Assembly: GCA_022866045.1 (NCBI GenBank)
Contig: JALHTW010000049.1
Location: 11,041 to 75,040, forward strand
Length of the DNA stretch: 64,000 nt
Direction of reading: 5' to 3'
Source of the DNA: Candidatus Aminicenantes bacterium
GTDB lineage: Bacteria > Acidobacteriota > Aminicenantia > Aminicenantales > UBA4085
Shown here: positions 3,470 to 40,963 of the stretch, in pieces
Position numbering within the stretch: position 1 is the stretch's first letter
Layout of the letters: the number at the start of each line of letters is the position of its first letter
Notes under the pieces: model-generated
Databases searched by the model: none
What the model was told of the DNA's origin: nothing
The model's input: the letters and a program-made list of their open reading frames with translations, nothing else
Position numbers and translations under genes: made by a program

Positions 3470-5425
3470 ATGCTCAGTAAGCAAAGAATTATTAAGGAGC
3501 TTATACCTTTAATCATAGTCGTTTCCATCTCCTTCATTGTTCTCCCGGTTTCGGGCGTTAATGTCGGCAATAATACAGCCAAAATCCTCCATGAAGCACA
3601 TCAAGTATCCCATGGCAAAACTCTCAATATGACTTTTGAAGATCAACAGGCAACCAGAGGACCGCTTTTGCCGTTGATCCTGGCTTTGAGCTTTAAATTG
3701 GGAGGGAAGGATGTCCAGGCTGCCTCGTTGGCGGCAAGGAGTTTTTTTACCCTAATTATTATTTTAGCTTATCTTCTAGGAAGGATATTATTTAGCGCAG
3801 GTGTAGGTTTTCTCTTTAGCAGTCTTGTTCTGACATCATATGGCATCAATGAAGCAGCCGTCGCCATTAATACGGACATTATCCATCCTTTTTTCAACTT
3901 GCTCTTTGTGCTTTTATTTTATCTCGCCAAGAAAAAATCAAGTTGCACGTGGGCTGTTCTTTCTGGGTTCATCTTGGGGCTGGCCTTGATGGTTAAAGAA
4001 TCAGCTATTTTCTGTTTAGGTGTTCCTTTGGCTATGGCTGTCTTTGCCCCTCCCCAAAAAAAGAAGGAGGGGATCAAACTCGCTTTTTGGGTGATAATAG
4101 CGGTAACATTGACGTTAAGTCCCTGGGCTTTTTACATATTTAAAAACCATGGCTCATTGCTTCCCATGCTTGGTGTTGCACATCCCCAATATCAAATGGC
4201 GACGGCAAAGCAGATTGGCTATCATAGCCCCTTCGCCTATTGGGTTTCCCTGTTTTCGACGGGCTTGCTCAAAGCAATATTCAACTTTTATCAGAACGTA
4301 TTACAAAAAGTTACTCCCCTGTCTCCTTTATTGATAGTCTCCTGCCTATTTGCCTTTATCCGGGCAGTGTTCTTCAGAAAGCTCAGCGACCTGCTCCTGG
4401 TAATTTCTTTGATTTGTTTCTTACCTTTGATTCTAAGAGTAGGCGATCTGGGGCTGAGATTGGGCCAAACAGTTATGATCTATATGTTATTATATCTTTT
4501 CCTGGCCATTTTTATCATCTCAAGCATAAATTTTCTCGTGGAATATGTCCCTAAGGTTCTGAGAGGATCTAACTTTTTTCTATTTAAAAAGATTTTAAAG
4601 CCAATCCGGTCGCCTTTAGCCTCAAAAAAACGCGATGCTAAACTATCTTCCTTGAATAAAAAGAAGTTAACCGTTAGTTTATTGATAACTTTGGTCGGAT
4701 TCTTCCTCATTATGAATCAATTGATTGGAAAGAACCGTACATGGGAAATGTGGAAATCCGGAGAGCACGCTCTCGCTATCTTCTCAAAAAAGTCATTCGA
4801 GGTTCGCGGCCGGTATACTACCCGGCAACAGAAGGCAGCCGAATGGCTAAAAATGAATGCCACAAAACAGGCTAAGCTTGCAGCCGATGGATTCACCCAG
4901 GAGGCATTAGATTTTTTTGACGCCTCAAACAATGAAGTCTCTGTATTTCACACCGCAAAAGAAATTGTCGTGCCCATTGACATTATAAAAAAAAGAGATG
5001 ACAATTCCCGACTCCTTTTCTTAATAACTTATCATTCTTTCTGTAACGGCCCTGAGAGACTCCGTGCCATGTTCCTCATATTTGAGGACGATATCTTGAA
5101 TTTTCTGAGAAAAGATAAACCAGATTATCTTATTATTTCAGGAAGAGGCCTATTCATGAGAATCTACTTAGACCGAGCTTATTGGGCTCATTTGAGATTT
5201 GACAATAAAGATCTTCGAATCTATGAAATTAACCATGAGAAAATAGGGCCTGTGATATTTGAACACATTGGTGTAAATGAAACGATTAATGAGCACCTCG
5301 CCTGGCTGAGTAAGAATCATCCTGAGGAGTATTTGTTATTCAAAGAAAAAATTGCCATTTTGGGATTAAATGTAGAGATGCTTGTGAATAGTCCATATAA
5401 ACTCCAGAGCGGAGAGGTCTACTGA
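3470..5425 (+). CDS. polytopic membrane protein with large C-terminal soluble domain, possibly a GT-C fold (ArnT/PMT-like) glycosyltransferase
   Basis: N-terminal ~400 aa with multiple TM helices, then a ~250 aa soluble domain. Start moved to ATG 3470, abutting the upstream stop. Confidence 0.3.
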   Translation: MLSKQRIIKELIPLIIVVSISFIVLPVSGVNVGNNTAKILHEAHQVSHGKTLNMTFEDQQATRGPLLPLILALSFKLGGKDVQAASLAARSFFTLIIILAYLLGRILFSAGVGFLFSSLVLTSYGINEAAVAINTDIIHPFFNLLFVLLFYLAKKKSSCTWAVLSGFILGLALMVKESAIFCLGVPLAMAVFAPPQKKKEGIKLAFWVIIAVTLTLSPWAFYIFKNHGSLLPMLGVAHPQYQMATAKQIGYHSPFAYWVSLFSTGLLKAIFNFYQNVLQKVTPLSPLLIVSCLFAFIRAVFFRKLSDLLLVISLICFLPLILRVGDLGLRLGQTVMIYMLLYLFLAIFIISSINFLVEYVPKVLRGSNFFLFKKILKPIRSPLASKKRDAKLSSLNKKKLTVSLLITLVGFFLIMNQLIGKNRTWEMWKSGEHALAIFSKKSFEVRGRYTTRQQKAAEWLKMNATKQAKLAADGFTQEALDFFDASNNEVSVFHTAKEIVVPIDIIKKRDDNSRLLFLITYHSFCNGPERLRAMFLIFEDDILNFLRKDKPDYLIISGRGLFMRIYLDRAYWAHLRFDNKDLRIYEINHEKIGPVIFEHIGVNETINEHLAWLSKNHPEEYLLFKEKIAILGLNVEMLVNSPYKLQSGEVY

Positions 5426-31643: not shown

Positions 31644-31952
31644 ATGTCAAAGTACGAAGCGCCAATCCTTGTCCCCTTAGGGGAGATCGCCAAAGGGTCT
31701 GGAGTCTGTTCAGTTGGAACTGCAGTTGTCGGCGGCAACTGGGGCGGAATCGGTACCTGTACTGTGGGTGCTTGTTTTGATGCCCTCTTTCCTGGAATAA
31801 CTGATTGTACGGCGGGTCCTAATGCAACACAGGATTGCTCGGCGGGTCCTACAGCAAATCGGGATTGCACGGCCGGCACTTGCGCACTCAGGGATTGCAC
31901 GGGCGGTACTGCTGCAACAGATGTGACTTGCTCGGCAGGCGGGGCTGTATAG
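31644..31952 (+). CDS. Cys/Gly-rich repetitive RiPP-like precursor peptide (102 aa, 9 Cys)
   Basis: Strong SD sequence; first gene of an operon with PqqD-like and rSAM/SPASM genes. C-terminal half consists of D-C-(T/S)-A-G-x-x-A-x-x decapeptide repeats. Confidence 0.6.
   Translation: MSKYEAPILVPLGEIAKGSGVCSVGTAVVGGNWGGIGTCTVGACFDALFPGITDCTAGPNATQDCSAGPTANRDCTAGTCALRDCTGGTAATDVTCSAGGAV
31797..31946 (+). repeat. 30-nt in-frame tandem repeats (4 full + 1 partial) inside the precursor ORF
   Basis: gattgtacggcgggtcctaatgcaacacag / gattgctcggcgggtcctacagcaaatcgg / gattgcacggccggcacttgcgcactcagg / gattgcacgggcggtactgctgcaacagat / gtgacttgctcggcaggcggggctgta. Confidence 0.85.
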
Positions 31953-32186: not shown

Positions 32187-32474
32187 ATGAATCAAACGGA
32201 CAGACCGATTGCCAATCCCATCGTTGTGCTCCGGGAGGAATTCGATGACTGGGCCGTACTCTTCAATCCCGATACGGCCGAAGCCGTGGGAACCAATCCC
32301 GTCGGTGTAGCGGTATGGAAACGGATGGACGGCAAGAGGAGCATCGAGGATATAGCGGCGGAGATCAAAAACAGCTTTGAAGACGCTCCGGACGCCGCCT
32401 TCAAAGAGATCGCCGCCTTCGTTAACAGGCTTGCTGAAAACGGTTTTGTGGGGCTGGAACTGGAGAGCAAATAG
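32187..32474 (+). CDS. PqqD-family peptide chaperone (RiPP recognition element)
   Basis: 95 aa with W-x-x-(L/M)DG-x-R-(S/T)-x-x-(D/E)-I core (VWKRMDGKRSIEDIAAEI) and C-terminal FVNRLAENGFV. GGAGG RBS. Confidence 0.75.
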   Translation: MNQTDRPIANPIVVLREEFDDWAVLFNPDTAEAVGTNPVGVAVWKRMDGKRSIEDIAAEIKNSFEDAPDAAFKEIAAFVNRLAENGFVGLELESK

Positions 32475-32477
32475 CGG

Positions 32478-33608
32478 ATGCCCGAGGAACTCAAGGACAA
32501 GACAGAACCAACGGTGTCAAAGGTTATGCGTACCCCGCGCAGCCTGATCATTGAAATCACCTCCCGCTGCAATCTGCGCTGCCGCTACTGCTACTTCTTC
32601 AACAACCCGGCGATGGTTTACCGGGATCTGCCTGCCAACGAATGGCTCACCTTCTTCGACGAACTGGGGTCGCTCGGCGTGATGAAAGTCACCCTGGCAG
32701 GCGGAGAGCCGTTTATCCGGGAGGACCTGCCCGTACTCCTTGAGGGTATTGTCCGCAACCGGATGCGCTTCTCTTTCCTGTCCAATGGCGGGCTGATCAA
32801 CGATGAAATCGCCGCTTTCATGGCCGGCACAGGCCGCTGTGAGTATGTTCAGGTGTCGGTGGATGGTTCGTGCGCAGAGGTCCACGACTCCTGTCGCGGG
32901 CAAGGCTCTTTTGACGGTGCGATACGCGGCATTCGCACCCTGCAGCGCCATCGGATTAGGGTGGCAGTGCGGGTCACGATTCATCGGAACAACGTGCATG
33001 ATTTGGAGAACATCGCTCACTTTCTTCTGGATGAGCTGGGCCTGCCGGATTTCGGCACTAACTCTGCAGGATACATGGGCACGTGCTGCGGGAACGCGGA
33101 TGATGTGCTGCTGAACATAGAGGAACGGAAGGAGGCCATGGCGACCTTGCTGCGCCTCACGGCGAAATACGATGGACGCATCTCGTCAAACGCCGGCCCA
33201 TTGACGGATGGGCGCATGTGGCGCCGGATGGAGGAGGCACGGGCACAGGGCAAGCCGGCCTTTCACAACGGTGGCCGCCTCACCGCGTGCGGCTGTCCGA
33301 ACAACAAGATCTCCGTGCGCGCCGATGGCGCAATCGTTCCCTGCAATATGTTAGCCCATGTCGAATTAGGGCGCATCAACCATGATTCTCTGGCAGAAAT
33401 ATGGCAAAACAGCCCGGCTCTGAACCAACTCCGCAACCGACATTCGATCCCGTTGACCGGGTTTGAGTTCTGCGCCGGTTGTTCATACATCCCTTATTGC
33501 ACAGGCAACTGTCCGGGATTGGGCTACACGTTAACAGGTATGGTTGACCATCCCAGTCCGGATGCTTGTTTGCGCCGCTTTCTCGAGGAAGGTGGGGCCA
33601 TCGCATGA
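32478..33608 (+). CDS. radical SAM / SPASM-domain peptide-modifying enzyme
   Basis: CNLRCRYCYF (CxxxCxxC) near the N-terminus, GGEP motif, and a C-terminal Cys-rich SPASM region (CGCPNN...PCN...CAGCSYIPYCTGNCPG). Confidence 0.85.
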   Translation: MPEELKDKTEPTVSKVMRTPRSLIIEITSRCNLRCRYCYFFNNPAMVYRDLPANEWLTFFDELGSLGVMKVTLAGGEPFIREDLPVLLEGIVRNRMRFSFLSNGGLINDEIAAFMAGTGRCEYVQVSVDGSCAEVHDSCRGQGSFDGAIRGIRTLQRHRIRVAVRVTIHRNNVHDLENIAHFLLDELGLPDFGTNSAGYMGTCCGNADDVLLNIEERKEAMATLLRLTAKYDGRISSNAGPLTDGRMWRRMEEARAQGKPAFHNGGRLTACGCPNNKISVRADGAIVPCNMLAHVELGRINHDSLAEIWQNSPALNQLRNRHSIPLTGFEFCAGCSYIPYCTGNCPGLGYTLTGMVDHPSPDACLRRFLEEGGAIA

Positions 33609-34765
33609 GCATTTTGAGCGATATGAAACAGCGGAAGACGGGACAGGCTGGAATGCGGACGATCAACACTTTGTATTTCTACTTGACCGAAGGGTGTAAC
33701 CTCGCCTGCCGCCATTGTTGGATGGGTCCCCGGTTCGACGCCACAGGCAACCATTATCCCACCCTGCCGGTTGAGTTGTTCGAGACGGCCATCCGTGAAG
33801 CCAAGCCTCTGGGGCTGAGTGGTGTCAAACTTACCGGCGGCGAGCCGTTGTTGCATCCCCACTTCACTCGTTTGCTGGAGATTGTCCGGCGTGAAGAGTT
33901 GAAGCTGACGATCGAGACCAACGGCCTGCTGTGCACGCCGGAGATCGCCGCTGAGATCGCCAAATCTCCCAACCGATTCGTATCCGTAAGTATCGACGGA
34001 ACTGATGCAGCGACCCACGAATGGGTGCGCGGTGTACCGGGAGCCTTTGAAGCGGCCCGCCAGGCGGTGCGCAGCCTTGTGGCCGCCGGCACCAGGCCGC
34101 AGATCATTTTCACGGTGATGCGCAGCAATGCCGGCCAGGTGGACGCCATGGTCCGAATGGCCGAAGAACAGGGTGCGGCCTCACTCAAGTTCAACGTGGT
34201 GCAGCCCACGGCACGAGGCGAGAAGTTGCATGAAAACCAGGAGACCCTGAACATCGGCGACCTCATCGAGTTGGGGCGGCACGTGGAACAGGAACTGGCG
34301 CCTAAGACCAAGTTGAAGATCTTCTTTCATTACCCACACGCTTTTAGAGCCCTCCATCGCATCGCCAGCGGGGATGGGTGCAGCGCCTGCGGGATCTTCG
34401 GCATCCTGGGCGTCATCGCCAGCGGACACTATGCCCTGTGCGGGATCGGCGAGCAGGTGCCGGATCTGATCTTTGGCGCGGTAGGGAAAGCCAGGCTGGA
34501 AGAGGTATGGCGAGAAAACGCCATCTTGAAGGCTCTCCGGGAGGGACTGCCCGAGCGACTGGAAGGGGTCTGCGGTCGGTGCCTGATGAAAGGGCGCTGC
34601 CTGGGCGCGTGCATTGCCCAGAACTACTACAGCAAGGGCAGCCTGTGGGCGCCATACTGGTTCTGTGAACAGGCGGAAGAAGCGGGTCTCTTTCCAACGT
34701 CACGTCTGGGAACAAGACCTACACAGTCTCCACTTATCACTATCGGCAATGCCGCTTCAGAATAG
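33605..34765 (+). CDS. radical SAM / SPASM-domain peptide-modifying enzyme (second copy)
   Basis: CNLACRHCWM, GGEPLLHP, and SPASM cysteines (CSACGIF...CG...CGRCLMKGRCLGACIA). ATGA overlap with the upstream rSAM. Confidence 0.85.
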   Translation: MSILSDMKQRKTGQAGMRTINTLYFYLTEGCNLACRHCWMGPRFDATGNHYPTLPVELFETAIREAKPLGLSGVKLTGGEPLLHPHFTRLLEIVRREELKLTIETNGLLCTPEIAAEIAKSPNRFVSVSIDGTDAATHEWVRGVPGAFEAARQAVRSLVAAGTRPQIIFTVMRSNAGQVDAMVRMAEEQGAASLKFNVVQPTARGEKLHENQETLNIGDLIELGRHVEQELAPKTKLKIFFHYPHAFRALHRIASGDGCSACGIFGILGVIASGHYALCGIGEQVPDLIFGAVGKARLEEVWRENAILKALREGLPERLEGVCGRCLMKGRCLGACIAQNYYSKGSLWAPYWFCEQAEEAGLFPTSRLGTRPTQSPLITIGNAASE

Positions 34766-36311
34766 TAACGGGAATGTCCCGGGGGCCATGTTCTTCGCTG
34801 CTTATGTCGGCCCGAGCATGAATCCGACTCTGCGCGAGCCGGAGATCATGGAGATCCTGCCTTATGACAAGAGGCCCTTGCGCGTTGGCGATGTGGCCTT
34901 TTTTCTGCCACCGGAGGCTGATCAGCCGGTCGTACACCGCATTATACGTGTGACCCCCGCAGGTATATCCACACTCGGTGACAACAACACCCAAGAGGAT
35001 ACTCTTCTCTTGCAGCCAAAGAGCATTAAAGGCCGGGTGGTGGCCGCCTGGCGTGGTCAAAAGCGGCGGAAGATCGCGGGCGGGTACCAGGGCCGGTTGA
35101 TAGGCCGCTGGCTTCATTGGCGACGCGTCCTTGACCGTGGCGTGTCTCCTCTGCTGCACCCCCTTTATCAAGCCCTATCTCACTGGGGATTGATCGCCTG
35201 GGTGTTGCCTGCTCCATTCCGGCCGCGAGTCGTCGTTTTCCAGGCCCAAGGTCGGGATCAGTTTCAGCTTCTGCTGGGACAGCGTATCATTGGGCGATAT
35301 GATGACCACAGGCATCAATGGCAGATCCAACGACCCTTTCACTTGTTTGTGGATGGAAGGGCGCTTCCAAGTAAACAGGATAGGGACCGAGTGAACCGGA
35401 AAGTTTTGACTGAACGGCGACGAACCATGAACCATCTACTGACGCAGGGAGTGCGGCATGACCTCGTCCTGGCTGATGGGAGTCATTGGGAAATTGCCGC
35501 CGAGGACAAGGAGGCCGCATCCATCGTTTCACAACTGGGATGCGCGATGCAGTTGCGCATGACACCAGGCGCAATCGAACCTTCTCATCACGGCAATCTG
35601 TGCCGACTGCTCGTCCAGGTTGACGCACAGACGTCCGTGGCGGATTGCTATGTCCCGTTGGCATCAGAAAATGACGGCGTCGTGGTCTGCATTCTAAGTC
35701 CATGCGATCACTGGGGCGGCCCGTTCGTCAATCTTATGAGATTATCGCTCGTCTTTGCTCGCGAAGCGCAGGCCCATGGAGGAGTCCTCATACACGGTGC
35801 GCTCTCTGAACGGGACGGCAGCGGTGTGATCCTGGCTGCGCCGGGCGGGGCGGGAAAGACCACGGCCAGCAATCGGCTTCCGGCCCCGTGGCGCTCGCTG
35901 TGCGACGATACCACGCTGGTGGTGCGGGACCCGCAAGGCAACTACTGGGCGCACCCCTGGCCCACCTGGAGCCGTTTCCTGGACGGGGGACCGGGCGGTA
36001 CGTGGGACGTGCAGAGCGCTGTGCCTCTCAAGGGCATCTTCTTCCTGGCCCAGGCGGTTGAAGATCGGGTGGAACGGGTAGGCCCCGGGCATGCGGTCAG
36101 CCTGCTCGGGGAGTGCGTAGGACAGGCCTCAATGTTCATGCCACTGGGCCTATTAAAAGAAGAACTCCGCGCCCTGCATCTGGAACGGTTCAATAACCTT
36201 TGCGCCTTGGCCCGGGTCGTACCCGCACACTTGCTTTACATCAGCCTGACCGGTACCTTCTGGCAAGAGATCGAGCAGGCGCTTGAGGGAGGACATTGTG
36301 AAGACACGTGA
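34749..36311 (+). CDS. fusion protein: N-terminal S26/S24-type (signal-peptidase-I-like) peptidase domain + C-terminal HprK-related P-loop kinase-like domain
   Basis: N-terminus VGPSMNPTLREPEIMEILPY...VGDVAFF...VVHRIIRV (SPase I box B GxSMxPTL). C-terminus GGVLIHGALSERDGSGVILAAPGGAGKTTASNRL resembles the HprK C-domain Walker A. Start at ATG 34749 is inferred. Confidence 0.55.
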   Translation: MPLQNSNGNVPGAMFFAAYVGPSMNPTLREPEIMEILPYDKRPLRVGDVAFFLPPEADQPVVHRIIRVTPAGISTLGDNNTQEDTLLLQPKSIKGRVVAAWRGQKRRKIAGGYQGRLIGRWLHWRRVLDRGVSPLLHPLYQALSHWGLIAWVLPAPFRPRVVVFQAQGRDQFQLLLGQRIIGRYDDHRHQWQIQRPFHLFVDGRALPSKQDRDRVNRKVLTERRRTMNHLLTQGVRHDLVLADGSHWEIAAEDKEAASIVSQLGCAMQLRMTPGAIEPSHHGNLCRLLVQVDAQTSVADCYVPLASENDGVVVCILSPCDHWGGPFVNLMRLSLVFAREAQAHGGVLIHGALSERDGSGVILAAPGGAGKTTASNRLPAPWRSLCDDTTLVVRDPQGNYWAHPWPTWSRFLDGGPGGTWDVQSAVPLKGIFFLAQAVEDRVERVGPGHAVSLLGECVGQASMFMPLGLLKEELRALHLERFNNLCALARVVPAHLLYISLTGTFWQEIEQALEGGHCEDT

Positions 36312-36393
36312 GACACGATCAGCAAGAATGAATCAGAATCAAAGCAGCAGAGCGCTGGATGATTACATTTAATTATGCAAGAGCAGGTTAATT

Positions 36394-38214
36394 ATGCAAG
36401 AGCAGGCTGAATCGATAAAACTGAAAATACAACGCGCCCTACAGCTTGGTCGCGCCGTGCGTTTTGTCTGGCAGAGCGCGAAAAGCTGGACAATAGCGAA
36501 CGGGGCTCTCATTGTGGTCCAAGGAATATTGCCGTTACTCCCGCTGTATCTCATGAAGCTCATGGTGGACGCCGTGACCGCGGGGCTGGCGGCTCCTGAC
36601 AAAGGGGCCGCTCTTAGACACGTGCTGTTGCTTGTTGGCTTTATGGGGGCAGCAACCCTGTTTGCCTTCTTGATCCGCCTGATAGCGGGACTGGTTAGCG
36701 AATGGCAGGGTTACATTGTCACGGATCACATGAACGACGTCCTCCTTGCCAAGTCCATTGAGGTAGATCTGGAGTATTACGAGAGTGCGCGATACTACGA
36801 CACCCTTCATCGCGCCCAACGCGAAGCCCCTTATCGCCCTATGAATATCGTTAATGGTTTGGCCCAGATTGGTCAGAACGGAATCTCGCTGCTGGCAATA
36901 GCAGGACTGCTCGTGTCATTTCATTGGCTCATCGCGGCAATCCTATTCACTGCCGTTATTTCCGGGACCGCAGTGCGATTAAGATATACCCGCAAGATGT
37001 ATCGCTGGCAACGTGAGCAGACATCCACGGAACGGCAAGCCGGCTACCTCAATTGGATTCTCACCGACAGCAGCCACGCCAAGGAAATCCGCCTGTTTGA
37101 CCTTGGACCTCTGTTCATGCGCCGGTTTCGCGATATCCGCCGGAAACTCCGCAAGGGAAGGCTGGCCATCACGCGCAGGCGTTATATCGCTGATTTTGCG
37201 GCTCAGACCTTTGCCACCGCGGCCATCTACGGTTCGTATGCTTATGTTGCTTCTCAGGCGGTGTGGGGGAAGATCACGTATGGTGATCTGGTGATGTATT
37301 ATCAGGCATTTCAGCGCGTCCAGGGATTTCTTCAGGGGATATTGGGCAGTCTGGCAGGACTGTATGCAGACAACCTGTTCCTTTCAAATCTCTACGAGTT
37401 TCTTGATCTGAAACGTACAGTCATCGAACCGGCTCATGCCAGCCCTGTGCCTCAGCCGATGCAACGCGGCATCGTGCTGGACCATGTGAGTTTTCAGTAT
37501 CCCACAGGCACCAGAAAGGTTTTTGAGGATATTTCCCTCACCATCCGGCCGGGAGAAGTGGTGGCTTTGGTGGGTGAGAATGGCTCGGGTAAGACGACTT
37601 TGATCAAGTTGTTGTGTCGATTGTACGATCCGACAGGTGGGACCATTACCATCGACGGGGTAGATCTGCGCCAGTTTGAAACAAAAGCGTTAAGACACGA
37701 AATCGCTATCATTTTTCAGGACTATGCCCACTACCATCTGACGGCCCGAGAGAACATCTGGTTTGGGAATACCGCCCTTCCGCCCGACCATGAACGTGTC
37801 ATCGCCGCTGCGCGCCGCTCGGGGGCTGACGACGTCATCAGCGCGTTGCCTCATGGCTATGATACGATTCTGGGAAAGTGGTTCGAGGACGGGGAGGAAC
37901 TAAGCATTGGCGAGTGGCAGAAAGTGGCCCTGGCCCGCGCCTTCATGCGCGATGCACAGATCATCGTCCTTGACGAACCGACAAGCTCTATGGACGCCAA
38001 GGCGGAATATGAGGTCTTCAAGAGTTTTCGCCAACTGGTGTCCGGTCGAACAGCCATCCTGATCAGTCATCGCTTTTCCACCGTCCGGATGGCCGACCGC
38101 ATTTATGTGCTGAAGCATGGAAGCATCATCGAAGGTGGCACCCACGAAGAGCTCCTTCGCGTGGGAGGAACCTATGCCCGGTTGTTCGAAATGCAAGCCC
38201 AGCATTACCGGTGA
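36394..38214 (+). CDS. ABC exporter, fused permease + ATPase (type I exporter, no peptidase domain)
   Basis: Six N-terminal TM helices. Walker A GENGSGKTTL, signature LSIGEWQKVALARA, Walker B IIVLDEPTSSMD. Confidence 0.9.
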   Translation: MQEQAESIKLKIQRALQLGRAVRFVWQSAKSWTIANGALIVVQGILPLLPLYLMKLMVDAVTAGLAAPDKGAALRHVLLLVGFMGAATLFAFLIRLIAGLVSEWQGYIVTDHMNDVLLAKSIEVDLEYYESARYYDTLHRAQREAPYRPMNIVNGLAQIGQNGISLLAIAGLLVSFHWLIAAILFTAVISGTAVRLRYTRKMYRWQREQTSTERQAGYLNWILTDSSHAKEIRLFDLGPLFMRRFRDIRRKLRKGRLAITRRRYIADFAAQTFATAAIYGSYAYVASQAVWGKITYGDLVMYYQAFQRVQGFLQGILGSLAGLYADNLFLSNLYEFLDLKRTVIEPAHASPVPQPMQRGIVLDHVSFQYPTGTRKVFEDISLTIRPGEVVALVGENGSGKTTLIKLLCRLYDPTGGTITIDGVDLRQFETKALRHEIAIIFQDYAHYHLTARENIWFGNTALPPDHERVIAAARRSGADDVISALPHGYDTILGKWFEDGEELSIGEWQKVALARAFMRDAQIIVLDEPTSSMDAKAEYEVFKSFRQLVSGRTAILISHRFSTVRMADRIYVLKHGSIIEGGTHEELLRVGGTYARLFEMQAQHYR

Positions 38215-38245: not shown

Positions 38246-39526
38246 ATGCCAGATTTTTTTAAGGAACGCAGCGTGACCATGGATAAGCGGTATACCGGAG
38301 ACGGCAAAAATACTTTGAAGCGCATTCTTGACTTATCGTGGCGAATTTCTGTCTATGCGCCTCCAATGAAGCCATTTATCCGCTTCTCGAAGCACGCAGA
38401 TACACTATACAAGGGAAAAACAAACAGCTACAAACATTTCTTCTGGGATTTCGACGACGCTTTGCAGAGGGTTCTTTTAGGCATGGCCCGTACCATAGCA
38501 ACACCCTCGGAGATTGCTGAAGCGTGCATCGAACGATGGAAAATTAACCTTGAGAAGTTCTACCAAAGAAGGAAGAGACAATTGGAAGAGTTGCGAAAAA
38601 ATGGCGAGGTTCCCCAATTTCGATACACGCCGCGCAACGAGTTTATCTTCTCACGGGTTGAGCCTGGCAGCCGCTTGCTTTATGTAGGATGTGGCACTGG
38701 AACAGAATGCCTCGGCTTGGCGCAGAGAGGCTATGAGGTTATCGGAATTGATACGGACGAACAACTGATTGAGATTGCAAATGAGTGGGCGGAATATCTT
38801 AAGCTTCCTTTTCAGGCAGTTTGCATGGATGCTGACAACATCGGTTTTTCGCCAGGATCTTTTGATGGCTTTTTATTGGAATTTTATGGATTTCAGTCTT
38901 CCCTGGTTCAGGCGTTGGCTCTTCAAAGAGGCCTCGCAAGTGTACTGAATGACAATGGAAAAGGGTTTATCTCAGCACCCCGCAAAAAATATGCCTCTCT
39001 CTGGTACAGGATGCCGAATCTTGGGTATCCAGAATCCATGTTTCATTGGCTGACAAGCCAATGCCGATTGGACCACTACTTTTCACAGATGGATGCGTGT
39101 GAAGAGAAGCTCGCTTTTGGACTGTATATCCGGAGCCATACTGTAGACTCTCTGTCTCGCGAATTGGGTGGCGTTTTCGATGTGCAAGAATGTATGTATG
39201 AAAAATATGATCCGCGCTATCTGATAAGTGTGGTCAAAAGAAAGGGCCGTTTTTCGGATTCATCCCCGACCTCAGAGAATGACGATACCGAGGATTGGAC
39301 AAAGCAGGAATATCTGCAAAGGGAGGGGGTGTCCATTGAAGATGTCTTGTACGAGATTCACGCTATTTGCGATCTACTTGAATTACAGAAGGAGAGAGTC
39401 GAGCGGTTTTTCCTCAATGGTGATGTTTCTGGGGGAAAAAGCCCTCTATCCATGGTGGATACGGATCTTCCAAGGTTTATCGAGCTTCTCGAGCATACCT
39501 ACGGAATGCGGCCCTTCCGCTCTTAG
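38246..39526 (+). CDS. class I SAM-dependent methyltransferase with N-terminal accessory domain
   Basis: LLYVGCGTGTECLGLAQRGYEVIGIDTDEQLIEIA (motif I plus acidic loop). Lower GC than the rSAM genes. Confidence 0.65.
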   Translation: MPDFFKERSVTMDKRYTGDGKNTLKRILDLSWRISVYAPPMKPFIRFSKHADTLYKGKTNSYKHFFWDFDDALQRVLLGMARTIATPSEIAEACIERWKINLEKFYQRRKRQLEELRKNGEVPQFRYTPRNEFIFSRVEPGSRLLYVGCGTGTECLGLAQRGYEVIGIDTDEQLIEIANEWAEYLKLPFQAVCMDADNIGFSPGSFDGFLLEFYGFQSSLVQALALQRGLASVLNDNGKGFISAPRKKYASLWYRMPNLGYPESMFHWLTSQCRLDHYFSQMDACEEKLAFGLYIRSHTVDSLSRELGGVFDVQECMYEKYDPRYLISVVKRKGRFSDSSPTSENDDTEDWTKQEYLQREGVSIEDVLYEIHAICDLLELQKERVERFFLNGDVSGGKSPLSMVDTDLPRFIELLEHTYGMRPFRS

Positions 39527-39540
39527 GGGGGAATATAGAA

Positions 39541-39692
39541 AAAGAGTGTCACGCTTGTCGTTAGCAGCCAAACGTCGCCAAATAGGTGTCAACCTGTTTT
39601 CCGCTGTATCTCGTGAAGTTCATGGTGGACGCCGTGACCGCCAGGGTGTTTACGCTGACCTCTTTGAGAAGCAAGCCCGGTCCTATCGTTAG
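39541..39692 (+). pseudogene. collapsed remnant of a second ABC exporter paralog (5' fragment joined out of frame to last 16 codons)
   Basis: 39601-39643 is ~95% identical to 36541-36582 of the ABC gene. 39644-39692 encodes GVYADLFEKQARSYR*, versus GGTYARLFEMQAQHYR* at the ABC C-terminus. Confidence 0.6.
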
Positions 39693-39715
39693 CCGCAAGA
39701 ACTGGAGGACTTATC

Positions 39716-40963
39716 ATGGAACAAAGAGAAGCGGGCAGACTTTTATGCGATTTTCTTTCAGGTAGAAAAATACCAGAAGCCAGGCTCGAAAAATTATCGC
39801 CGGCTGATGGGGAGAGTCTGGCAGACTTGGCGCTGCGTTTTAAAGTGGGGGGGTTGTTCTATCGGGAAATAAAGTCCCGTAACATTCCGACTGAGCTTAT
39901 CCCGGTTGATGTCAGAAACAGACTCAGGGACGCCTACCGCAACCTGGCCACTGTGAACACGAGTCTTTTTCTTGATGCCTCAAAAGTTCTTAAGTCTCTG
40001 GCCGACAATCAACTGCCGGTCATTGCGCTCAAAGGTCTTTCGCTGGCAAAAAATATCTATGGTGATATCGCTTTAAGACCAATGTCCGATATGGATCTTT
40101 TAGTGAAAGAAGAAGATCTGGTCAGGGCCGGCCGGATACTGCTGGCTCTTGGCTATAAGCCGCATTTTTCTGCTTGGGAGAGCATGTTGAAGACTCGCCG
40201 TCATTTGCCGCCTTTTACGAATAAAAGCGGGGCGATGATAGAACTTCACTGGAATATTGTGACTCCGGATAGCCCCATTGAAGTAGATCTTGACGGGTTG
40301 TGGGAGAGAGCGTGTCTTATCAAAGTGGATAATGTCGAGGTCCGGGCTTTTTCTCCGGAGGATTTATTTTTACATTTGTGTATCCATGCTGGTCATCATC
40401 TGCAGACCGGAATAGACTTGATTCCTTTCTGTGATATGGCCGGATTGATAAAAACATCCGGAGATAAAATCGACTGGCAAATAGTCATTGAGAGGGCCAC
40501 CCGGTGGGGCGGCCAAAAGTGTGTTTACCTGATGTTGCTTCTGGTCCGGGAATTGCTGGGAGCGGCGCCGCCGGATAAAATTATGTCAGAAATAAAACCC
40601 GATGATTACCGGTCTGTTTTTTTTGATGAAGCCCTGGAACAGATTTTTGATGTAAGCCCGGCAGGTCAGCTGTTTAGAATAAGAATCGGCAAACTTTCAA
40701 AAATAAAAAAAGTTAAAGGGATTAGAGGTAAAGTTTTGGCTCTTTTAAAAGGAGTTTTTCCGTCAAGGGAGAATCTGGCCCGCATCTATCCGGTGTCGGT
40801 TTCTTCCCCGAAGATATATCTGTGTTATTTATTTCGCCTGGGCCGCATGATTGTCTACTATACGATTGTGCTTCTTCGGTTATTCCGCCGTGATCAATCG
40901 GTTATAAAAGCGGTCCATCAGGAGCATCGGGTGAGCGCGGTTTCCGACTGGATGTTTTCATAA
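39716..40963 (+). CDS. nucleotidyltransferase-family protein (PF14907-like, HPr-rel-A-system-type NTase)
   Basis: Pol-beta-like motif GDIALRPMSDMDLLVKEED (hG..x9-13 DxD). About 415 aa. Sits in a neighbourhood with PqqD-like and HprK-like genes. Confidence 0.5.
   Translation: MEQREAGRLLCDFLSGRKIPEARLEKLSPADGESLADLALRFKVGGLFYREIKSRNIPTELIPVDVRNRLRDAYRNLATVNTSLFLDASKVLKSLADNQLPVIALKGLSLAKNIYGDIALRPMSDMDLLVKEEDLVRAGRILLALGYKPHFSAWESMLKTRRHLPPFTNKSGAMIELHWNIVTPDSPIEVDLDGLWERACLIKVDNVEVRAFSPEDLFLHLCIHAGHHLQTGIDLIPFCDMAGLIKTSGDKIDWQIVIERATRWGGQKCVYLMLLLVRELLGAAPPDKIMSEIKPDDYRSVFFDEALEQIFDVSPAGQLFRIRIGKLSKIKKVKGIRGKVLALLKGVFPSRENLARIYPVSVSSPKIYLCYLFRLGRMIVYYTIVLLRLFRRDQSVIKAVHQEHRVSAVSDWMFS

Follow-up and report, generated by a model that had tools for sequence, protein, structure and literature searches.

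The 189-nt gap at 39527-39715 of the 64,000-nt stretch analysed here (the window) separates the last two genes of a peptide-maturation cassette, a methyltransferase gene (MT) and an NTP_transf_5 family gene (NTP). We consider it probable that the gap is a non-functional relic, composed of an eroded, 5′-truncated copy of an ABC exporter gene (psiABC) and a patch templated by the intact exporter gene (ABC1) of the same cassette. The relic occupies all of the gap and extends beyond 39541-39692, where an earlier note, made from the letters alone, had seen the scar of a collapsed second ABC gene. That reading is partly supported, being right in kind and wrong on the ancestor and on the origin of a 41-nt stretch.

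The gap lies within a SynChlorMet (Scm) radical-SAM/SPASM cassette, whose gene order is ScmD, ScmE, ScmF, ScmC, ABC exporter, MT and NTP. All four markers of the system (NCBIfam TIGR04248-TIGR04251: ScmD, ScmC, ScmE, ScmF) are present, adjacent and above their curated cut-offs, in one operon-like array spanning 32187-36311: the PqqD-like ScmD (32187-32474; 108.5 bits, cut-off 100), the radical SAM/SPASM proteins ScmE (32478-33608; 559.7 bits, cut-off 400) and ScmF (33566-34765; 531.4 bits, cut-off 400), and ScmC (34614-36311, forward strand; 187.4 bits, cut-off 125). ABC1 (36394-38214, forward strand; Pfam ABC_membrane and ABC_tran) is intact and was the reference in all comparisons; its 606-aa product has a transmembrane domain and a nucleotide-binding domain, with Walker A at residues 394-401, the signature motif at 503-509, Walker B at 523-528 and the H-loop at 557-560, and among homologues of solved structure the best are MsbA, Sav1866 and ABCB-type exporters. 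MT (38246-39526, forward strand; Pfam Methyltransf_25/11) borders the scar on the left; it encodes a class I SAM-dependent methyltransferase, and relatives have orthologues of 64-93% identity in the corresponding place. The window MT returned no record in an exact look-up. On the right flank stands NTP (39716-40963, forward strand; Pfam PF14907, E 1.8e-59), 69-90% identical to its orthologues in loci L028, L029, L035 and L039. The SynChlorMet library definition, unlike the window, is silent on the ABC, methyltransferase and NTP_transf_5 tail, and it is only this accessory part (ABC/MT/NTP) that the scar touches. No relevant literature was found on ScmC, SynChlorMet or the TIGR accessions.

For comparison, 44 related loci were gathered through MT homologues and relic ORFs. 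All comparison sequences come from metagenome assemblies, and the metagenome-assembled genomes among them are labelled Thermodesulfobacteriota, Syntrophaceae, Deltaproteobacteria, Desulfobacterales, Brocadiaceae and Verrucomicrobiota. Two loci that recur below, L038 and L043, are records Ga0480577_043939 and Ga0395639_028340.

All pieces of the gap lie on the forward strand. Directly after the MT stop comes a spacer (39527-39571), 89% identical over 46 nt to a consensus common to L014, L008, L033, L034, L039, L044, L001 and L040, in which it directly precedes psiABC at ABC nt ~1419; no copy of this spacer was found elsewhere in any of the 44 loci. At 39575-39590 a tentative piece may correspond to about ABC nt 1634-1649 (FRQLVS; TCGCCAAATAGGTGTC vs TCGCCAACT-GGTGTC), a match equalled by 117 of 5000 shuffles (p about 0.02). 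Ten bases (39591-39600), assigned to no source, separate it from the 41-nt patch (39601-39641), which is followed by the psiABC tail (39637-39692), which reads (N)RQGVYADLFEKQARSYR and ends in the stop codon TAG at 39690-39692. The remainder, 39693-39715, is the native spacer from the psiABC stop to the NTP start, kept together with the tail in L001, L035, L039, L040 and L043; it holds the ribosome-binding site of NTP (GGAGG, 39704-39708).

The patch and the tail are in different frames, as the earlier note had recognized: 39642-39692, read in frame from 39528, gives GVYADLFEKQARSYR and a stop, shifted by one base from the frame in which the 41-mer reads PLYLVKFMVDAVTA. The window relic has no intact reading frame and lacks Walker A, the signature motif, Walker B and the H-loop, which bears out the view that it is a dead remnant of ABC-exporter coding sequence. 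It also supplies the stop codon of a spurious 154-codon ORF (39228-39692, forward strand), which had been attributed to the scar; this ORF overlaps the MT 3′ end out of frame, has no Pfam match, and its frame is not kept in relatives, being closed by a TAA in L033 and out of frame with the tail in L001. It is not to be called as a gene.

A blastn search of the gap against the whole 64 kb gave a single non-self match, 39601-39641 against 36541-36581 (forward strand), with 39 of 41 positions identical (E 1.6e-13; 4e-15 with the ABC gene alone as target) and all remaining hits at E ≥ 2.2. The template, 3,060 nt upstream of its copy on the same strand, covers ABC1 codons 50-63 (PLYLMKLMVDAVTA), not 48-61 as first proposed. 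Apart from two private transitions, present in no ABC1 gene, the patch equals the ABC1 allele of the window and L036, the sole allele that differs from it by nothing beyond those two changes. Across all loci the patch matches the 5′ regions of ABC1 genes only, and neither the 41-mer nor any 5′ ABC sequence was found in the other relics of all loci compared; L039, L040, L043 and L038 run uninterrupted, and without an insert, through the interval that the patch replaces.

At the exit junction of the patch ABC1 reads ...GTGACCGC/GGGG and psiABC reads ...AAACCGC/CAGGG, and the window combines them as ...GTGACCGC/CAGGG, with a right-junction microhomology of 5 nt (ACCGC) common to ABC1 and the psiABC tail. 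The left junction, ...CCTGTTTTCCGC, is common to three independent records (L001, L002 and L012). L001 keeps this sequence, with only the first 4 nt of the patch (CCGC), and then jumps to TTTGAG; since this CCGC matches the patch and not the CAGC of L001's own ABC1, L001 descends from a window-like scar. Because the 41-mer lies 3′ of the spacer, it cannot be a leftover of sequence 5′ of the junction and is not collinear with a retained N-terminus. In view of its position, its absence from other relics, its match to the resident allele and the ACCGC microhomology, we favour a templated insertion at a deletion junction over a retained N-terminus as its origin. Templated insertions occur at microhomology-mediated deletion junctions, through template switching of the replication-slippage or MMBIR/FoSTeS kind. 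As in such filler-DNA events, 41 nt from a nearby same-strand template replace a deleted interval here, with microhomology of 5 nt at the one junction for which both parents are known; unlike in them, only one of the two switches is documented, from sequence alone.

The second ABC-like stretch needed the relatives for its identification. Aligned with ABC1's own tail, to which it had been compared, the window tail shows 29 of 63 nt identical (46%) and 11 of 20 aa, and it has no blastn match, so an alignment of the gap against 36394-38214, significant for the 41-mer, would alone be unconvincing for the tail. The relatives settle it as an ABC C-terminus: 39637-39718 of the window is 88% identical over 82 nt (E 5e-21) to an in-frame ABC 3′ end in L038, and longer versions of the tail occur in L035 (EGGTHEELINRQGVYADLFERQARSYR and a stop), L039, L040 and L043. 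Its terminal sequence, INRQGVYADLFE[KR]QARSYR followed by the stop, is common to the window, L001, L035, L038-L043 and the catalogue proteins P0101-P0107, and in all of these it lies ~23 nt 5′ of a canonical NTP gene.

At the MT-NTP site the relatives form a graded series. Outside the close subclade (L028, L029, L031, L007 and L013, with MT identities to the window of 71-76% for the first three, 81% for L007 and 64% for L013), only 0-15 nt separate MT from NTP, and no trace of ABC sequence is present. The NTP type of the window occurs in L028 and L029 (69-79% identity), and in such cassettes the two genes are 10-15 nt apart; the ancestral state is one with no gap between MT and NTP. Inside the close subclade, whose MT is 83-93% identical to that of the window, there is ABC sequence at the site, and each lineage has a different part of it. 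The whole 142-codon copy is found in L044 (5374-5802, encoding P0122) and in P0113, with the same start in both (SRLSLAAKRRSGADD; SRLSLAAKRRSGADDV...). L008, L033 and L034 keep ABC codons ~473-517 and L014 keeps codons 473-504; in L039 codons 473-480 are joined in frame to 568-606, and L040, L041 and L042 keep codons ~523-606. In the closest relative, L035 (MT 93%, NTP 90%), MT codon 421 is fused to ABC codons 580-606, and in L003 to L006 and L009 MT codon 422 is fused to codons ~548-606, with frameshifts. Only about 9 codons are left in L001, L002 and L012. Several of the deletion breakpoints lie in short repeats, such as GAD/D and MAD/R in L039 and TCGCGCTTGTCG vs TCGTGCTTGACG in L040.

Every lineage that keeps the left end has the same junction, consisting of the MT stop, the 46-nt spacer and ABC nt ~1419 (codon ~473). 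The shared spacer and junction indicate that the subclade ancestor carried a 5′-truncated copy of the ABC 3′ part, psiABC, covering nt ~1419-1821. In its 142-codon form psiABC has the signature motif, Walker B and the H-loop and lacks the transmembrane domain and Walker A. Relatives with MT 90-93% identical to the window's already differ in the pieces they retain, so the scar does record rearrangement of the cluster, as had been supposed. No full-length second ABC gene was found at the site in the 44 loci, where the longest copy has 142 codons and starts at codon ~473; in L038 and L043 the ABC frames are open to the contig ends, so both loci are uninformative on this point.

In the window lineage the 3′ end of psiABC differs in type from its body. 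When L033 and L038 are combined into a composite psiABC, its identity to the window ABC1 is 94.1% over nt 1419-1757 (339 nt, no gaps), and in 30-nt windows it shows 25-30 matches to ABC1, falling to 10-19 after nt ~1749. The last ~21 codons belong to a different, distantly related type (tail2: INRQGVYADLFEKQARSYR), and psiABC in the window lineage reads as a mosaic of an ABC1-like body and a foreign tail. A dN/dS of 0.04-0.25 on the L038 branch, from small counts, suggests that tail2 was long part of a working gene; among the clear relics the ratio is 0.3-0.7, against 0.1-0.2 for ABC1, from counts of only 1-8 substitutions, and P0122 has radical changes in conserved motifs. In L044, by contrast with this foreign tail, psiABC including its tail and post-stop spacer copies the 3′ end of L044's own ABC1 (85% identical), and a different NTP type adjoins. 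The L003 relic resembles an L014-type ABC and adjoins a third NTP type. Each tail type is thus paired with its own NTP type (tail2 with the canonical NTP; in L044, the ABC1-like tail and ABC1-MT-type spacer with an L007-like NTP), which makes the scar coincide with a homology breakpoint of the cassette: NTP identity is only 25-37% between cassettes whose other genes are 80-90% identical. In a representative library searched with P0111, generic ABC proteins predominated; the best single-domain match was 72% identical, in a library clustered at 50%. A word-index search for a full-length ABC protein ending in tail2 yielded only proteins of roughly the query's own length, which has no bearing on whether full-length forms exist.

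These observations can be arranged into the following history. The subclade ancestor gained, between MT and NTP, a ~142-codon, 5′-truncated ABC 3′ copy preceded by the 46-nt spacer. In the window lineage this psiABC is ~94% identical to ABC1 from nt 1419 to ~1757 and continues as tail2. It was eroded independently in different lineages by small deletions, several of them between short repeats. In the window lineage, a deletion of about codons 551-588 was then probably bridged by 41 nt from ABC1 codons 50-63, in a template-switch or filler-DNA event that reached 3.06 kb upstream and rejoined the psiABC tail via ACCGC; the patch would later have gained its two transitions. L001 and its duplicates derive from a window-like state that lost another 21 and 58 nt in two deletions. 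The window retains the spacer, possibly the 16-nt piece, the patch, the last ~18 codons with their stop, and the native ribosome-binding site of NTP. psiABC itself may have arisen by local partial duplication, which fits L044, or by recombination of an ...ABC-MT cassette with an ABC(tail2)-NTP cassette, which would agree with the foreign tail, with the pairing of tail and NTP types, and with the low dN/dS along the L038 branch.

The second of these origins leads to a wider explanation, in which the duplicated ABC 3′ segment came from recombination of two Scm-type cassettes, one giving ...ABC-MT and the other, without a methyltransferase, giving ABC(tail2)-NTP, by an unequal or Campbell-type event; the repeat could later mediate loss or swap of the MT gene or of the tail-plus-NTP module. 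The ABC 3′ end is indeed directly repeated on the two sides of MT, psiABC has a sharp left edge (nt 1419), and the pairing of tail2 and of the L044 and L003 kinds of tail with particular NTP types, together with the divergence of NTP where other cassette genes are 80-90% identical, points the same way, as does contig L033, which starts exactly at ABC codon 472, as expected for an assembly repeat boundary. Against this stand the L044 psiABC, a plain copy of its own ABC1 3′ end and downstream spacer that fits simple local duplication, and the 46-nt spacer, for which no source was identified in any locus; nor was a full ABC gene directly followed by an NTP gene found in any cassette of the 44 loci, where L038 and L043 start inside the ABC frame. 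We regard such an exchange as a possible but unlikely account. It is likewise speculative, and slightly more doubtful, that SynChlorMet-type cassettes exchange modules and that the segment is a footprint of this exchange and perhaps a homology handle that can be reused for it; if true, recombination within the ABC 3′ end would insert or swap MT or a tail-plus-NTP_transf_5 module, and the scar would mark a boundary of tailoring-gene shuffling between peptide clusters of uncultured Thermodesulfobacteriota and their neighbours. The earlier note had proposed another ancestor. A second, complete and paralogous ABC half-transporter gene, perhaps for a heterodimer partner, would have stood between MT and NTP until a single internal deletion, out of frame, reduced it to codons ~50-63 and the last ~17 codons. 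Its two pieces are both ABC-derived and in N-to-C order, tail2 shows signs of past purifying selection, and the frames open to the contig edge in L038 and L043 would suit a longer gene. The shared junction of the spacer with codon ~473 largely refutes it, however, since the window keeps this spacer with the 41-mer downstream of it; furthermore, no relative has more than 142 codons at the site, no other relic holds 5′ ABC sequence, and cassettes outside the subclade have no second ABC gene at all. One old paralogue would not be expected to be 95% identical to ABC1 in the 41-mer and 46% in the adjoining tail. The heterodimeric exporter pairs (NHLP bacteriocin ABC1/ABC2, TIGR03796/TIGR03797; TM287/288) resemble the present case in having a second ABC-like sequence close by in a peptide-maturation cluster; unlike in those pairs, no relative that would retain two full-length genes exists among the 44 loci (L038 and L043 end at the contig edge), the second copy lacks the transmembrane domain and Walker A, and the window ABC1, which matches the pair families weakly, has the look of a lone half-transporter, a kind that normally homodimerizes. 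Before the shared 5′ truncation there may have been a full-length ancestor; the collapse of a complete second gene in the window lineage we hold to be improbable.

A functional gap would fit the evidence much less well. It could encode a small protein (48 codons from GTG 39546, ending ...GVYADLFEKQARSYR) or act as a regulatory RNA or leader for NTP_transf_5, and one frame is open across the entire gap; the relic is in frame in L039 and L040, where gene callers predicted 53- and 74-aa ORFs. The frame is broken in L033 (TAA) and in L001, though, and the content varies from lineage to lineage; NCBIfam gives no match for the 48-codon ORF, and the fragment, lacking Walker A, could not bind ATP alone. 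In 39527-39715 we found no Rfam match and no terminator-like site, the folding is not unusual (z-score -0.64), and the one promoter-like site, on the minus strand, compares with 0.6 expected by chance. No sign of function was found in the gap, which we take to be non-functional, and a role for it as protein or RNA seems very unlikely; likely only the last ~25 nt, with the NTP ribosome-binding site, matter. Least credible of all is a chance similarity or, for the 41-mer, an assembly artefact. The window is probably a metagenome-type assembly, in which repeats can be mis-joined, but the E values (4e-15 for the 41-mer, 5e-21 for the tail), the left junction shared by L001, L002 and L012, and the two private substitutions in the patch, which would not be found in a duplicated read, make this extremely unlikely.

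The eroded psiABC copy with its probably ABC1-templated patch is a further instance of a known phenomenon, an ordinary evolutionary scar and a tidy example of stepwise gene erosion. Deletional bias is usual in bacterial genomes. Like other bacterial pseudogene relics, this one has homology to a working neighbour gene, has lost the essential motifs, keeps no conserved frame, and shows a lineage-specific series of small deletions among close relatives; it differs from them in that its source copy, to judge from the comparative series, was already only the last ~142 codons, and in that it holds a stretch inserted secondarily from elsewhere in the parent gene. The deletion series of this single partial duplicate runs from 142 codons to about 9, is unusually complete for a natural one and includes one likely templated-insertion event. 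It also marks the accessory end of an otherwise well-conserved cassette as a recombination breakpoint. For annotation, many catalogue entries of 41-142 aa named "ATP-binding cassette subfamily B protein" (P0101-P0107, P0111-P0113, P0122) are psiABC relics and not genes. On the chemistry or export of the peptide product the relic tells nothing new.

Other candidate similarities in and around the gap were tried and rejected. The spacer is not a duplicated NTP_transf_5 5′ end (ATGGGAAAAGAG vs ATGGAAAAAAGAG), a match that 213-1643 of 2000 shuffles score as well, and a derivation of 39586-39604 (TTTTCC) from the HRFST codons of psiABC is equalled by 4605 of 5000 shuffles. Tiny Cys-rich ORFs starting in the spacer (MGKECRACC and a stop in L001) were considered as precursor peptides and dropped, since neither the window nor L014 has the ATG and conservation of the frame is lacking. 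A likeness of the MT C-terminus (YEMQPHRR in L028) to ABC tails is visible only in L028 (11 of 21 nt in the window) and was taken as chance. The ~500-nt gaps in L010 and L014 were rejected as ABC relics and consist of repeat elements instead.

We note some further peculiarities of the cassettes. (i) The Brocadiaceae cassettes have these ~500-nt repeat-rich insertions at ScmC/ABC and ABC/MT (L010 1880-2500 and 4285-4830; L014 4400-4970 and 6750-7290); in part they are inverted copies of one another, and they resemble miniature mobile elements. (ii) In L044 an insertion sequence (3836-5373) sits exactly between the MT stop and the 46-nt spacer; it encodes a transposase with DUF772, has the terminal inverted repeats CAGTCCGTGG and CCACGGACTG, and is adjoined by a 30-nt relic of two inverted repeats (CAGCCCGTGG...CCACGGGCTG). 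(iii) At codon 540 of the otherwise intact ABC1 of L008 (6723-8543), an in-frame TAA stands in place of the GAG of the window, reflecting either inactivation or a sequencing error. (iv) The P0108 ORF, on a 1,494-nt contig, fuses the leader that precedes ABC1 (TRETRSARMNRNQSSRALDDYI, window ~36304-36372) to ABC codon ~556 and a tail2-type end; this lineage appears to have lost most or all of the exporter gene. (v) In the window itself, a perfect 19-nt tandem duplication (TTAATTATGCAAGAGCAGG twice, 36369-36406) spans the ABC1 start codon; its first ATG (36375) begins an out-of-frame ORF of 11 codons, whereas ABC1 itself starts at 36394. The 19-mer is single-copy in L003, L007, L028, L029, L036 and L037. 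(vi) The ScmC ORF has 565 aa, with its TIGR04249 (ScmC) match confined to residues 374-557 and a weak signal peptidase I match at residues 64-142; in some relatives ScmC is called as two ORFs or as a shorter ORF. (vii) Just 5′ of ScmD lies a 102-aa Gly/Cys-rich ORF (31644-31952, forward strand), without an NCBIfam match and with repeated D-C-[TS]-A-G motifs, which is probably the precursor peptide of the cassette.
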